Below, one piece after another: positions 30,354 through 41,428 of a stretch of 41,428 bases of DNA. Positions within the stretch are counted from its first letter, which is position 1. Each line of letters opens with the position of its first letter. The DNA is from a virus. Taxonomy: Duplodnaviria > Caudoviricetes. The translations under genes were made by a program, and so were the position numbers. The stretch is taken from positions 1 through 41,428 of the IMG/VR virus record IMGVR_UViG_3300033513_000024. One strand, given 5' to 3'. Below the pieces are notes generated by a model, which worked only from the letters and a program-made list of their open reading frames with translations, was not told the DNA's origin and did no database searches.

Positions 30354-30430
30354 CCTACCCCCTACCCCTACCCCCTACCCCGCCCTACCGCAGCCCCCAA
30401 AGGGGGGGATAGGTAGGGGGTAGGGGGTAG
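30354..30430. repeat. cluster of GGGTAGGG (KOPS-like, G4-prone) motifs in inverted arrangement
   Basis: CCCTACCC at 30360, 30366, 30373 and GGGTAGGG at 30418. Confidence 0.7.
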
Positions 30431-30454
30431 ACCACCCCGGTATGCACCGGAAGA

Positions 30455-32993: not shown

Positions 32994-33180
32994 CAGTAGA
33001 ACAGTAGTTACAGTAGTTACGCCGTAACTGCTACGTAACTACTCAAGCCAAAATCAGTAGTTACGCGGAAAATTCCGCCGACCACAACATCTAGTATGCT
33101 TTTGCTCTCAACAGTCCCATAAATTGTGGTCATTGCATTCTCAACCTTAAGACGTAACTGATGTAACTACGTAACTACTG
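32994..33180. repeat. probable replication origin with direct and inverted iterons
   Basis: CAGTAGTTA(C) at 33002, 33011, 33055; GTAACT(A/G) variants at 33024, 33035, 33154, 33163, 33171; AT-rich non-coding gap after the primase-helicase. Confidence 0.7.
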
Positions 33181-36430: not shown

Positions 36431-36514
36431 ATGGCCCCGTCGACGGGGACTTAATATGTCCCCGTCGTAAAAAAGGATGTCCCCGTCGAATGTCCCCGTC
36501 GAATGTCCCCGTAG
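36431..36514. repeat. 12-bp direct repeats ATGTCCCCGTCG
   Basis: Copies at 36431 (variant), 36456, 36477, 36490, 36503 (variant); inverted copy at 36441-36450. Confidence 0.8.
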
Positions 36515-37136: not shown

Positions 37137-39682
37137 TTCCCCTTCCCATTATTGCCGTCGACATGCACCGTCTCAACGCTCCCCATATAATCAAACAGCG
37201 TCGGGGCCATCGCCTTCATCTCGGCCTGCCGGCAATAGGCCGCGCCGGCGCGCCAGAAATCCTCACTCAGCTCGATCCCGTACCCCCGTCTTCCCATCTC
37301 AACCGCAACGTAGGGAACGGTAAACAGACCAGCGAACGGGTCCAGGATAATGTCGGGTTCGGCGACCAATTCGGGATCGCTGGTGAACCGCTCGACCAGC
37401 CGCCGGACAATATCGAAAGGCAACGGGCAAATGTGCTTCTCAAGGCCCCGCTGGCTCTGGACGCTGTTCAAGCAAAACATTGGGTTGATGTTGTCCCACA
37501 CCCGGTCGCTGTGGCTCTCTGGCGGTTCGTAGAAGAACGTCGCCGGCAGGTTCCCGGCGCGTTCCTTCTCTTCGAGCCGGGCCACGTGGGCATCATAATC
37601 GTAGAGTTCATCTGGCAACAAGGGACGGTCGCCAGATGAGCGCCAGAATGAGTGAGCATCGATCTGCCATCTCGCACGGGTGTAGCGCTCCTTGCTATGC
37701 ACCACCTGCTCGTCTGCATAGGCCGTATCTGTTGCCGTCGGTGCCTTGCGGAAGAGCAGCACCTTTTCCGGCAGCCCCACGCCCATCTTCGACCCGTCTT
37801 TGCACATCTCAGTCCAACCCAGCCGATAGGTTGAATTGTTTTCGCGGACCACATCGGTCACTATGAAGATTTCGCCTTCGTACAAAAAGCCGTGCTTCAT
37901 AAAGGCGAAGATGGTCTTGGCTGAGAAGGGATTGATCTCCATAAACCCGGAGGCCGTCTGATGGCTGTAGCGCACGATGTCCTTGACGTGGATGGCTGCT
38001 ACCCGCCCCGGCTTGAGCACCCGCAACAGATGCGGGATGAGGAAATCCATCTGCTCGAAGAATCGCTCATCGTCCCGGTTGTGCCCAAAGTCGTTGTAGC
38101 TGGCCACGTATTCGTAGTGGGTGCTGAAGGGGATGCTGGAGATGATCGCCCCGAAATGGTTATCAGGCAGAGTCTGCAGCTCCTCCACGCAATCATTCTT
38201 GACCGCCGTGAAGCGCTCCCCGTCCGCCTGCTGTCGCTCTATGCCGATGGTCCGGTGCAGGTCCTGGCTCAAGGCTGCGTGGGTCAGGCCATACTGTTTG
38301 ATGATCGCTTGCATCTTAACCACCAAGGCGTCGTGTTGCTGCCATTTGCCCTTGAGAGTATCCACCACCGCCTGTTCCGACTCGGCGTAAATGATGTGTA
38401 TATCCACCGGCTGCTCTTGCTGAAACCGGTATATCCGGTGGATGGCCTGGATGAAATCTTGGAAGAGGTAGGACACGCCCAAAAACACGGCGCTGTGGCA
38501 ATAGAGCTGGAAATTGCACCCGGAGCCTGACAGCTCAGGCTTGCTCGCCAGGATGGCCACGTCACCGTGGGCGAAGCCAATGGTGCGCTCCTCACGCACG
38601 TCCAGGTCCTGAGAGCCGTACACGCTGATCGCATCCGGCACCGCCTTTTCAATGGCCCGCCGTTCGTCTTCCAGGTGATGCCACAATAGCCAATGGCGGT
38701 CCGGGGCCTCGCCGACGATCTCGACCATCTTTCGGATCCGGTCCGCCAGCGTTGCCCTCTTTTCGGCGGATGCCTCTCGCACCCCGCTGGCCGCGTCCAG
38801 GAACAACCGGTGCTGTCCCCGATTGTCGGTTTGGTCCCACGCCCGGCGATGATCCGTCTCGATGCGGTGCCAATGGACGCGCAGCTCGGGCAGGTTGTAA
38901 CCCTCGTCCGAATAGCCCAAATCACTGGGCTTATACAGGAACAGCGCCCACGAAGCCACCCACAGCCAGAATGTGCGTTCGTGCTGGGGATGGATCGTCA
39001 GGTGACCGGCCTTCGTCGTATCGCGTTGAAACCACCGGGTCAAGGCCTCGCCGTGCTCCATAATCCCCAGCCAGCGCGCGTAATAGATGATTTCTCGATA
39101 CTCATTGGGCGCCGGCGTCGCCGTCGCCACAAACCGATAAGGGACGGGGGCGAAGACTTCCACGAACACATCCGACGTTTTGCTATCCAGTGACCGGAGC
39201 ACTGACCCCTCGTCCAGTGAGACACCCCCCAGCAGATTGATGGTCGCCGGCGTGATGTTGCCCTCTCTCACCCGTTCGTAATTGGTGATGAGGTATGGAG
39301 TCGTCGCCGCCCGGATTTCCTCATCGGTGCGCACGTACTGCCACACCTGGCCCAGCGCCGGTCCGTCCTCCGCGCTGAACTGGTATTTCACCCCCAACGG
39401 GCAAACCACCAAGAATGGCTTGCCAGTGCGTTCGTAGATTAGCCTGGCCAGCTCGCACTGCACGCGCGTCTTGCCAAGCCCGAAGCTCATCGCAATCAAG
39501 GCCCGTCCCAGGCGCGCCGCCCAAACAATCGTATCTCTCTGATGTGGGAAGAGGCTCGGATGTAGAGTTCCCGGATCAACAGCAAAACCGGACCGCTCCA
39601 CTATATCGATCTTGCTCTCTAAGAAGTTCTGGTATTCCGTAGGTGTGTCCATTTGCTCACAATTCATATATCGCTCTACCAT
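37133..39682 (-). CDS. SNF2-like helicase fused to N4/N6 DNA methyltransferase
   Basis: FGLGKT, LDEG, ATATP, QAIHRIYRFQQ; then SSIPF, KHICP, ILDPFAG, GIEL. Confidence 0.88.
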   Translation of the reverse strand: MVERYMNCEQMDTPTEYQNFLESKIDIVERSGFAVDPGTLHPSLFPHQRDTIVWAARLGRALIAMSFGLGKTRVQCELARLIYERTGKPFLVVCPLGVKYQFSAEDGPALGQVWQYVRTDEEIRAATTPYLITNYERVREGNITPATINLLGGVSLDEGSVLRSLDSKTSDVFVEVFAPVPYRFVATATPAPNEYREIIYYARWLGIMEHGEALTRWFQRDTTKAGHLTIHPQHERTFWLWVASWALFLYKPSDLGYSDEGYNLPELRVHWHRIETDHRRAWDQTDNRGQHRLFLDAASGVREASAEKRATLADRIRKMVEIVGEAPDRHWLLWHHLEDERRAIEKAVPDAISVYGSQDLDVREERTIGFAHGDVAILASKPELSGSGCNFQLYCHSAVFLGVSYLFQDFIQAIHRIYRFQQEQPVDIHIIYAESEQAVVDTLKGKWQQHDALVVKMQAIIKQYGLTHAALSQDLHRTIGIERQQADGERFTAVKNDCVEELQTLPDNHFGAIISSIPFSTHYEYVASYNDFGHNRDDERFFEQMDFLIPHLLRVLKPGRVAAIHVKDIVRYSHQTASGFMEINPFSAKTIFAFMKHGFLYEGEIFIVTDVVRENNSTYRLGWTEMCKDGSKMGVGLPEKVLLFRKAPTATDTAYADEQVVHSKERYTRARWQIDAHSFWRSSGDRPLLPDELYDYDAHVARLEEKERAGNLPATFFYEPPESHSDRVWDNINPMFCLNSVQSQRGLEKHICPLPFDIVRRLVERFTSDPELVAEPDIILDPFAGLFTVPYVAVEMGRRGYGIELSEDFWRAGAAYCRQAEMKAMAPTLFDYMGSVETVHVDGNNGKGK

Positions 39683-40356
39683 CCAAAATCTTCGGCTTTA
39701 TACTCGTGGTCGTGGTTTAGCCGGTCGTGAACGTAGGTTCCTCTCACAGGCAGATTCTCAATCACGCGCCACGCCTCCCACAGATGGGACAGGAATACCT
39801 TAATCATCTTGCGCATGGCAGCGTTGTGAATGTGTGCCTTTGTCCAGTCAGGTCGCCCCGCTTGATAGAATGTCTTGGCGTCGTCATACACCTCACGATA
39901 GGGCGAATTGCACTTGAGGAAGGACGAGGCGACCAAATACAGGGTTGTCTTCAGGCGAGCATTGTAGTGCAGCTTTTCGCCTTTCGTCGGTCGTTCTCGC
40001 TCACCATCCACGACGCCATAGCCACAGTAACGCCACAGCGCCGAAACGGTATCGGCTCGTTCAATGTCAATCATCGCAATGAGTTTTGCTGAGAGTAGCG
40101 GGCCGATCCCTTTCAACCCCGACAGGCTTTCATAAATTGGCTCAGTCTTGACGGCGCGGGCTATATCCTTATTCAATTCCATCTCAAGGTCGGTGAAACG
40201 AATCAACCACTTGTCAACGACGTTGCGTTGATCGCTAACTGACGGGTCATCAGCGCTCTGCTCGATAGCTGCCAGGCGGTTTCCAAACTGGATACGCGCC
40301 TTTTGTATCTGGCGGTCGCGTAGGTCTACTAAAGCTCTCAGAAGATTGTCAGGCAT
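39676..40356 (-). CDS. tasA: TasA-like Nop/IS110-related RNA-binding protein without nuclease domain
   Basis: Coiled coil (RQIQKARIQFGNRL), then LKGIGPLLSAKLIA, SALWRYCG, YNARLKT, HIHNAAMRKMIKVFLSHLW; no N-terminal DEDD RuvC; directly downstream of the 36-bp array. Confidence 0.8.
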   Translation of the reverse strand: MPDNLLRALVDLRDRQIQKARIQFGNRLAAIEQSADDPSVSDQRNVVDKWLIRFTDLEMELNKDIARAVKTEPIYESLSGLKGIGPLLSAKLIAMIDIERADTVSALWRYCGYGVVDGERERPTKGEKLHYNARLKTTLYLVASSFLKCNSPYREVYDDAKTFYQAGRPDWTKAHIHNAAMRKMIKVFLSHLWEAWRVIENLPVRGTYVHDRLNHDHEYKAEDFGW

Positions 40357-40371
40357 TTTGTTTTTTCCTTT

Positions 40372-40727
40372 TCGCTCTATGATATAGGGTTACTTTCACA
40401 GTTGGGCTCGCACGGTTCTCTTTGTATCACTGGCTCGCTCTTATGATGCGGGTATCTTTCGTCACTTGGCTCGCTTACGTATGCTGGGTCTCTTCTACCC
40501 CCTGGCTCGCTTCCTCCTTTTGGTTCTCTCACTGTCACTGGCTCGCTTGGCGGTCTTGGGTCTCTAGACGTGGATGGCTCGCTTTACTCCTTTGGTTCTC
40601 TCAACGCCACTGGCTCGCTCTCGCTCTTAGGTCATCTCTATACGTACGGCTCGCTTTACCTTACTGGTCCTCTTCAACATCCTGGCTCACTCTGGGTGTG
40701 TGGTTCTCTCAATTGTCCTGGCTCGCT
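40372..40727 (-). ncRNA. TIGR-type tandem interspaced guide RNA array (8 complete units plus 2 degenerate)
   Basis: TGGCTCGCT or a one-mismatch variant at 40431, 40467, 40503, 40539, 40575, 40611, 40647, 40683, 40719 (exact 36-bp period). Minus-strand unit: AGCGAGCCA-N9-AGAGAACCA-N9. Confidence 0.88.
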
Positions 40728-40736
40728 TAGGCTCTC

Positions 40737-40764
40737 AGTTGGAATAATCGCTCTTATCAGCCCT
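40737..40764 (+). repeat. dif-like site at the leader of the TIGR array
   Basis: AGTTGGAATAA TCGCTC TTATCAGCCCT. Confidence 0.75.
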
Positions 40765-40806
40765 CCCCTCTCCCTCTGGGAGAGGAGAAAGTTGTAAGGG
40801 GTCTCC

Positions 40807-41052
40807 TTACTTTCCCCGGTTCCGCCGCCGCGACGCCTTCGCAATCTTTCGCCGCCGCTTCGCCAGCTTCCCCACGCCTTTCTTGCCAGACCCACGTAGG
40901 TCCGGCAACCGTCGTATCTTCTTGCGAGCCTTTGGCGCTGTAGTTGGTGCCGGCTGCTGCTCCACCTTGGAGCCCAGCAGCACCCTCAACAGCGCCAGGT
41001 CTCCCGCATTCACCACCGGTTTGCGTCTAATCGGTCCGCCCTTCGCATCCAT
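40807..41052 (-). CDS. small basic protein
   Basis: Lys/Arg-rich C-terminus; RBS AAGGAG; follows ParA. Confidence 0.6.
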   Translation of the reverse strand: MDAKGGPIRRKPVVNAGDLALLRVLLGSKVEQQPAPTTAPKARKKIRRLPDLRGSGKKGVGKLAKRRRKIAKASRRRNRGK

Positions 41053-41064
41053 TCTCCTTACTCC

Positions 41065-41428
41065 CTACTTCCCCACTGCCCCCAAAAACCGCTCCACCAC
41101 CTTCCCCATCGCTACCGTAACCTTGTCCTCCGGCGCCATATCGAACACCACGTTCCCGAAAGCGCACGCCTCCGCCACACGCACACTCAAGGGGATTGGC
41201 GGCCACACCGTCGGACCGAAGGCCTTCACCAGATCCTCCAGTTGCGCCTTGTGCTCGTTGGTGTACCGGATCATATTCGGGACCACCCCCAACAGCCGCG
41301 GACCCTTGCCGCCCCGCTTCTCTTGCACCGTCGCGGCCATCAACCCCACGCCCTCCAGGGCGAGGCGTTCGAGCTGCGTCGGCACAACCACCCAGTCCAG
41401 TGCCAGCAGCATCTCGCCGAACCCCGCC
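41065..41428 (-). CDS. parA: ParA/Soj-family ATPase, C-terminal part (truncated by the window)
   Basis: LALDWVVVPT...LALEGV...LLGVVPNM...IPLSVRVAEA. Confidence 0.8.
   Translation of the reverse strand, partial: AGFGEMLLALDWVVVPTQLERLALEGVGLMAATVQEKRGGKGPRLLGVVPNMIRYTNEHKAQLEDLVKAFGPTVWPPIPLSVRVAEACAFGNVVFDMAPEDKVTVAMGKVVERFLGAVGK

Follow-up and report, generated by a model that had tools for sequence, protein, structure and literature searches.

The virus record IMGVR_UViG_3300033513_000024 (Duplodnaviria; Caudoviricetes), analysed here over its whole length of 41,428 nt and referred to as the window, almost certainly contains a dual-repeat TIGR-TasA locus, a further member of a class that has already been described. 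The locus comprises an array of two alternating short repeats and the gene tasA, which encodes a 226-residue Nop-domain protein, both read on the minus strand. In the reading that we prefer, and to which we give a probability of roughly one half, TasA would mature its own guides and use them, without cutting DNA, to keep competing phages or other mobile elements from being transcribed or replicated. What the analysis establishes is the array, the protein fold, the missing nuclease and a conserved Y/H dyad, together with the setting in a phage genome, a search for self-targets that detected none, and a sister contig from which the cassette is missing.

Architecture of the array

The array occupies positions 40727 to 40372 of the minus strand and consists of nine complete units and one that lacks spacer B. 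In units 1–8 (40440..40727) the period is exactly 36 nt, and each unit is built from an edge repeat, AGCGAGCCA, a 9-nt spacer A, a loop repeat of the form AG-[AGT]-[AG]-[AC]-CC-N, most commonly AGAGAACCA, and a 9-nt spacer B. A first-pass annotation, made from the sequence without database searches, had proposed this alternation on the minus strand and listed eight spacer pairs; the periodic layout was re-derived over 40727–40440, and all eight pairs are exactly as written there. The two degenerate units with which it closed the array had to be redrawn as unit 9 (40413..40439), 27 nt long with edge, spacer A and loop but no spacer B, then unit 10 (40377..40412), complete but degenerate and shifted by 9 nt, and finally a 3′-truncated terminal edge, AGCGA (40372..40376), of the pattern described in PMC12045711. 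No 27-nt unit resembling unit 9 was found in related loci. From the half edge, 15 nt lead to the tasA ATG at 40356, in agreement with the earlier figure of about 15 bp.

Among the nine edges counted from 40727, seven columns are invariant and the other two deviate in one copy each, and the best lag-36 identity reaches 0.587 in the array versus 0.289 ± 0.032 (maximum 0.396) in 324-nt stretches elsewhere in the window. Judged from sequence and not from structure, the edge has the potential to pair through G2:C7 and C3:G6, with T3:G6 in one window edge; pairing of this kind, the T3:G6 type included, is a published trait of TIGR edge repeats. Edge and loop both begin with AG and both have CC at positions 7–8, and the loop is A-rich, in keeping with a class in which both repeats carry box C (CCA) and box D motifs and the edge forms one additional base pair, whereas TaTIGR repeats open with UG (box D). 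Of the 18 window spacers, 17 have a purine at position 9. The 3′ end of the array has its half edge, the 5′ end is merely edge-like and a terminator was not found. Folding of the array RNA is unremarkable (z 0.35), and Rfam gave no match at E ≤ 1 within 39500–41428. A CRISPR array was considered and ruled out by the two 9-nt repeats and 9-nt spacers, which stand in place of a single 25–36-nt repeat with spacers of like size.

The TasA protein

The tasA gene (39676..40356, minus strand) encodes a coiled coil and a Nop domain, without a nuclease. The sole Pfam match of the protein is PF02371 (E 9.5e-6, passing the cut-off), and a PDB sequence search returned two matches, TasR 9mty (E 1e-25) and TasH 21kl (E 4e-22). 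An AlphaFold model built from 33 sequences (pLDDT 90) was submitted to Foldseek, where ranks 1–10 were TasH and TasR structures with a top TMq of 0.76, as against 0.55 for IS110 recombinases. The resemblance to the IS110 C-terminal/Nop region that the annotation had pointed out is upheld by the Pfam match and the Nop fold, and this HHpred/Foldseek-type check favours Tas over IS110. The IS110 bridge recombinases (IS621; PMC11208158) have a coiled coil and PF02371 (Tnp/Nop-like) in common with the window protein but possess a RuvC/DEDD domain and a single bridge RNA; the window locus has neither and carries a 36-nt array instead.

The N-terminus of TasA is the start of the coiled coil, 11 open codons lie upstream of the ATG, and an N-terminal RuvC/HNH or RuvC/DEDD domain (PF01548) is absent from the window protein, as the annotation had stated for RuvC. 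In 88 close relatives the longest upstream open stretch is 112 codons and 81 of the 88 have 47 or fewer; the RuvC domain of IS621 comprises 122 residues (PMC11208158). Residues Y208 and H215 align to Y289 and H296 of SpTasH, which that protein uses in guide maturation (PMC13421893). Alignment A1 (33 sequences) shows no variation at H215 and conservation of at least 90% at Y208, but the helper residue H268 of SpTasH is not kept and aligns to V187.

Longer forms were found for 2 of 1,626 candidate relatives, both of them intein insertions, with no nuclease fusion among the candidates. These two close relatives are P0121 (623 aa) and P0122 (478 aa). Their inteins are of the LAGLIDADG type and interrupt the protein at different points, following the positions equivalent to L189 and Y110 of the window protein. 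Inteins are not mentioned in the available text of the two main TIGR papers, PMC12045711 and bioRxiv 10.64898/2026.09.09.750476.

Comparison with known and related loci

In dual-repeat TIGR systems, repeats of 8–12 nt alternate with spacers of about 9 nt at a 36-nt period over 5–15 units, and the array typically, though not universally, opens with a 5′-truncated edge and closes with a 3′-truncated edge and a terminator (PMC12045711). The window has the corresponding period and repeats, a co-oriented adjacent Nop-domain gene, no N-terminal nuclease and the Y/H dyad; the match to TIGR-Tas architecture drawn in the annotation held for the array layout, the edge and loop assignment, the solo Nop fold and the missing nuclease. 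The unit plan of 36 nt and the solo Nop protein are the same as in FpTIGR of Flavonifractor plautii and dual-repeat TIGR-TasA (Faure et al. 2025, PMC12045711), as are the position of the array adjoining tas and the 3′-truncated last edge, whereas the window differs in that unit 9 is without spacer B and the array reads into tasA with no terminator. With 4,126 dual-repeat TIGR arrays catalogued (bioRxiv 10.64898/2026.09.09.750476), the locus is one more among several thousand, and its clade is already represented in Table S1 of PMC12045711, where the homologues P0007, P0017, P0027 and P0058 (60–68% identical) appear in cluster node25458; the exact window protein is not among the 9,182 rows listed in the available form of that table.

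SpTIGR-TasH of Salicola phage CGphi29 (PDB 9w03, 9w04, 21kl) has nearly the same edge, AGCGAGCCA with a purine in front, and shares with the window the A-rich loop, the Y/H processing dyad and the top fold match, but SpTasH has an HNH domain that the window protein lacks. The reading given for SpTIGR has spacers of 8 nt and repeats of 10 nt, and the purine at position 9 in the window family (about 94%) falls between the 8+10 and 9+9 readings.

Related proteins numbered 484 at E ≤ 1e-10. A motif scan located 952 units in 128 of 159 sequences; 949 of them share the strand of the tas gene, and the units hold 781 different spacer pairs. An array lies within 1.5 kb in 84 of the 90 close, C-terminally complete relatives (40 downstream, 35 upstream, 9 both). 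Across relatives the edge is nearly fixed and the loop variable, which settles the identity of the edge and hence the pairing of spacers A and B. Position 9 is a purine in 676 of 714 A spacers and 672 of 714 B spacers in related arrays, so that only eight spacer positions are free; since SpTIGR, with the same edge behind a purine, is read with 8-nt spacers, the functional guide may be 8+8. None of the window spacer pairs recurs among the 781 unique pairs, the closest differing at 4 of 18 positions, which fits fast turnover. No parB-like gene of the TasParB kind stands in an operon with tasA among the neighbours inspected. Spacers B4 and B6 were considered as ribosome-binding sites and rejected, AGGAG occurring 7 times versus 8.1 expected in A spacers and 5 versus 8.7 in B spacers (781 pairs). 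A further TIGR array with a Tas gene (L261, 30% identity) came from the guide 3 scan described below and had been missed by the protein scans.

The cassette in sister phages

Parts of the region are contained in six public DNA runs from three studies, all labelled wetland metagenome, and one of the runs may be the source of the window record; in the 34–40% of each run that was examined, contigs did not cover the array itself. In run X3, which belongs to a different study, a 414-nt contig (depth 9) matches 39500–39643 with two differences, continues with 15 other letters that include an in-frame start codon, and resumes at 40732 for 34 letters. It omits 1,088 bases, that is, the whole array and tasA, which together with the first codons of the helicase-methylase gene make up a cassette at 39644..40731 (minus strand). 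A second X3 contig (168 nt) contains a tasA 5′ end about 91% alike, preceded by a last unit that shares spacer B of window unit 8 and has the half edge immediately after it. In the X3 sample, phages that carry the cassette thus appear to occur beside sisters that lack it, together with a different array end, and the cassette appears to be swapped in and out among sister phages, a result that rests on one contig each from about one third of the run and does not distinguish gain from loss. The empty allele brings a start region of its own, and for this reason an exchange of alleles would fit better than a clean deletion. The two cassette ends, 40756–40732 and 39678–39653 on the minus strand, open with eight identical letters that include a half edge and go on with loosely similar leaders; this likeness may be a trace of the recombination event by which the cassette moved. 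A search of viral contigs gave no exact relative for the 5′ flank. A pair of sister phages from one habitat type, differing in whether they carry the cassette, would make it possible to test its role directly.

Proposed mode of action and search for targets

By analogy with its relatives, the array would be transcribed by read-through from the early gene block, and a TasA dimer would cut the transcript within each edge through Y208 and H215, giving 36-nt guides. A 2:1 complex of TasA and guide would open a 16–18-bp DNA site with no need for a protospacer-adjacent motif, spacer A pairing with one strand and spacer B with the other, and the bound DNA would be repressed sterically. Such steric repression has been shown for MbTasA and CsTasR, which likewise lack an active nuclease, and RNA-guided DNA binding would be expected to block transcription here too; a Minisyncoccota TasA is a demonstrated RNA-guided repressor in E. 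coli (bioRxiv 10.64898/2026.09.09.750476). That study centres on stem-loop systems without the Y/H loop, and no test of repression by a dual-repeat TasA was found in its available text. The annotation had suggested a non-cutting, programmable DNA-binding module used against competing elements or for regulation. A nuclease is indeed missing, and TasA, compact at 226 aa, is a candidate for a programmable DNA binder that processes its own guides and does not cut; use against competing elements is kept at the even odds given above. The preferred reading is weakest where it takes competing elements, and not host genes, to be the targets.

Each target was rebuilt by placing spacer B, in reverse complement, after spacer A, as the 8-nt 3′ overhang and the C-5 rule in the literature imply, and the three other orders served as controls. 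The outcome weighs against the preferred reading in several ways. All 781 guides, run against the 159 sequences, gave no exact match and six one-mismatch matches in the canonical order, versus 8, 18 and 15 in the controls and 6–13 with shuffled pairs, and the window guides had no match at two or fewer mismatches in 29 Tas-selected or related phage records, searched without the last ~300 bases of G012 and G043. Viral-contig collections were scanned for exact matches with guides 1, 3 and 4, three of the nine guides. Guide 1 had no match; guide 4 had three, in two unrelated groups at 43–49% GC with no gene in common with the window; and guide 3, used as a 16-nt core, had 37 in 12 clusters, of which 21 are exact over 18 nt and all fall in two clusters, one of 20 near-identical phages at 34–35% GC and the other L269. 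Independent exact matches number 0, 2 and 2, a chance level for the size of the collection, and show no sign of kinship to the window phage. The searches covered phage and viral sequences; a self-target in the missing part of the genome, about 22%, is possible; and no consensus promoter before the array or terminator after it was found at the array. This lack of any target above controls, when 18-mers of the kind proposed in the annotation were sought in phage contigs, fits its caution that the targets cannot be read from the sequence.

The same machine might instead silence host genes, for example defence or lysogeny-related ones, during infection or lysogeny, which we consider unlikely but a serious contender. 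TasA and dead TasR are able to repress a chromosomal gene (bioRxiv 10.64898/2026.09.09.750476), the cassette sits in an early, leftward gene block, and phage targets were looked for without success. Host targets might be conserved, yet the spacer pairs are not common to related Tas loci, although these relatives are distant, and the spacers are not enriched for ribosome-binding motifs.

Regulation of the phage's own genes, or assistance to the integrase by bending its own DNA, an idea found in PMC12045711, appears improbable. The phage is temperate, with an integrase and an att-like tRNA 3′ half, its integrase family is common to five other Tas-bearing records (although these were chosen for Tas), and the missing 22% or so of the genome leaves room for a site. 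Against this, a search of the 41.4 kb of the window in four orientations with gaps of 0–2, the att-like site included, gave no canonical match at three or fewer mismatches and three at four. Across 28 records, 266 guides searched against their own records gave no exact match, one match at one mismatch (in its own array) and five at two mismatches versus 2–7 in controls; 8+8 guides with gaps of 0–4 gave no excess either. A sister phage, moreover, appears to manage without the cassette.

That some guides, here guide 3, were copied from and are aimed at TIGR repeat junctions and so silence rival arrays is, in our estimate, more improbable still. In the rebuilt target of guide 3, three bases come first, an edge variant follows, and bases 1–6 of the guide's own spacer A close the sequence; the target matches the guide's own junction at 14 of 18 positions (P = 19/1500, about 0.013, for any of the nine units, in a post hoc test). 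Unit 3 (40620..40655, minus strand) has the sole altered last edge base among units 1–9 and a loop with three changes relative to the commonest form; the edge variant in its target, 8 of 9 to the consensus, is itself the consensus edge in L049, L050, L066, L069 and L087. Altered edges are common, however, since 220 of 714 do not end in CCA, and rebuilt targets containing an edge or loop show no excess across the family (3 of 714 versus 3.05 in shuffles). Local junction matches number 6 of 714 against about 1, but three of the six come from duplicated spacers and the control orientation gave 8, and one of the 37 collection matches of guide 3 lies inside another array, at 15 of 18. The apparent self-resemblance of guide 3 is a weak lead.

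There is only a slight chance that the cassette is a decaying or neutral passenger whose guides no longer match anything, as the broken unit 9, the degenerate unit 10, the failure to find a target and the absence of the cassette in a sister might suggest, given an intact reading frame with the invariant residues and dyad of the clade and eight clean units. A truncated IS110 transposase beside a translated 6/12-aa repeat is refuted at the sequence level: PF02371 matches, G-x-L recurs at six-residue intervals in an antisense frame that also contains a 75-aa open reading frame (ORF), and antisense frames in related units have somewhat fewer stops than shuffled ones (131 versus 158 ± 10; 135 versus 170 ± 11), but there is no RuvC/DEDD domain, the fold is nearer to Tas than to IS110, stops occur in all six frames over the window array (one in those antisense frames), leaving the array non-coding as annotated and not a 12-aa repeat, and among 778 related units the most open frames still carry a stop in 131–135, or 17%.

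How arrays change

Duplication was assessed in 95 non-redundant arrays (714 units, 3,676 within-array pairs) using the first 8 nt of each spacer. Pairs of units differing at no more than 4 of 16 positions number 18, spread over 14 arrays, whereas 300 shuffles that kept the composition gave 0.29 (maximum 3). Spacers that are identical but have unrelated partners account for six cases, in six arrays, versus 0.19 when shuffled, and one-mismatch versions for 22 versus 4.2; identity between an A and a B spacer is seen once versus 0.23. Units duplicate and half-units re-pair in register within related arrays. Exact tandem copies may include assembly errors, diverged copies less so, and the signal does not show that most guides arise in this manner; the window array itself has no duplicated or re-paired pair, its closest pair differing at 8 of 16. 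The pattern was not found in the passages on TIGR arrays that were consulted, and a literature search found no paper on spacer acquisition by TIGR arrays.

Duplicated units and re-paired spacers offer a sequence clue to array growth without Cas1-Cas2, and both this and the role of the cassette bear on questions listed as open in PMC12045711 and bioRxiv 10.64898/2026.09.09.750476. A bolder proposal, which we hold to be doubtful, is that TIGR arrays write guides from their own DNA without adaptation enzymes, through unit duplication, re-pairing at the loop repeat and inverted copying of junctions, guide 3 being one product aimed at edge junctions. If true, self-written guides would let a swapped cassette silence the rival cassettes of sister phages. 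In L066 (10827–10853), spacer B is an inverted copy of its own loop repeat (16 of 17, with a one-base overlap), the single clear self-referential case among the 714 units.

Phage context

The record is that of a temperate tailed phage with genes for an integrase, terminase, portal, capsid, tape measure, primase, FtsK-like protein and ParA; the genome is linear and 78% complete. The array and tasA lie within a leftward early block, where ParA and an 81-aa ORF without a Pfam or PHROG match precede the array and a helicase-methylase gene follows tasA. Five Tas-bearing records, chosen for carrying Tas, have an integrase of the same family; three of the five, G004, G013 and G014, differ in gene order, with tasA standing apart from parA. 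In G049 the helicase-methylase gene is present (60%), with no tasA match within the 27.6 kb examined.

Just before the tyrosine integrase gene, positions 417–486 of the plus strand contain a tRNA 3′ half (anticodon loop CAC, Val; Rfam 20.6 bits, below the cut-off), where ARAGORN found no full tRNA; this putative att-like site could reveal the host. Chloroflexota clusters are among the Atlas neighbours of the integrase and FtsK, but other clusters are too, and the signal is too weak to name a host; the sole match in a genome-contig search is a contig end in a metagenome-assembled genome.

A GC-rich hairpin (40764..40788, no strand assigned) lies just upstream of the array, outside the cassette, and 38-nt stretches similar to 40764–40801 sit in unrelated flanks in runs X2 and X4; it may be a dispersed palindromic repeat, REP-like in kind. 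Between the FtsK-like gene and the next ORF, the intergenic stretch 30354–30431 has short direct repeats (CCTACC-type) facing inverted copies, and all 9 nt of spacer A7 are matched exactly at 30423, its partner spacer having no match there. The primase gene has a 13-nt tandem repeat in 2.8 exact copies (36477–36512) on its upstream side and short repeats (32994–33178) on its downstream side, which are possible candidates for origin iterons.

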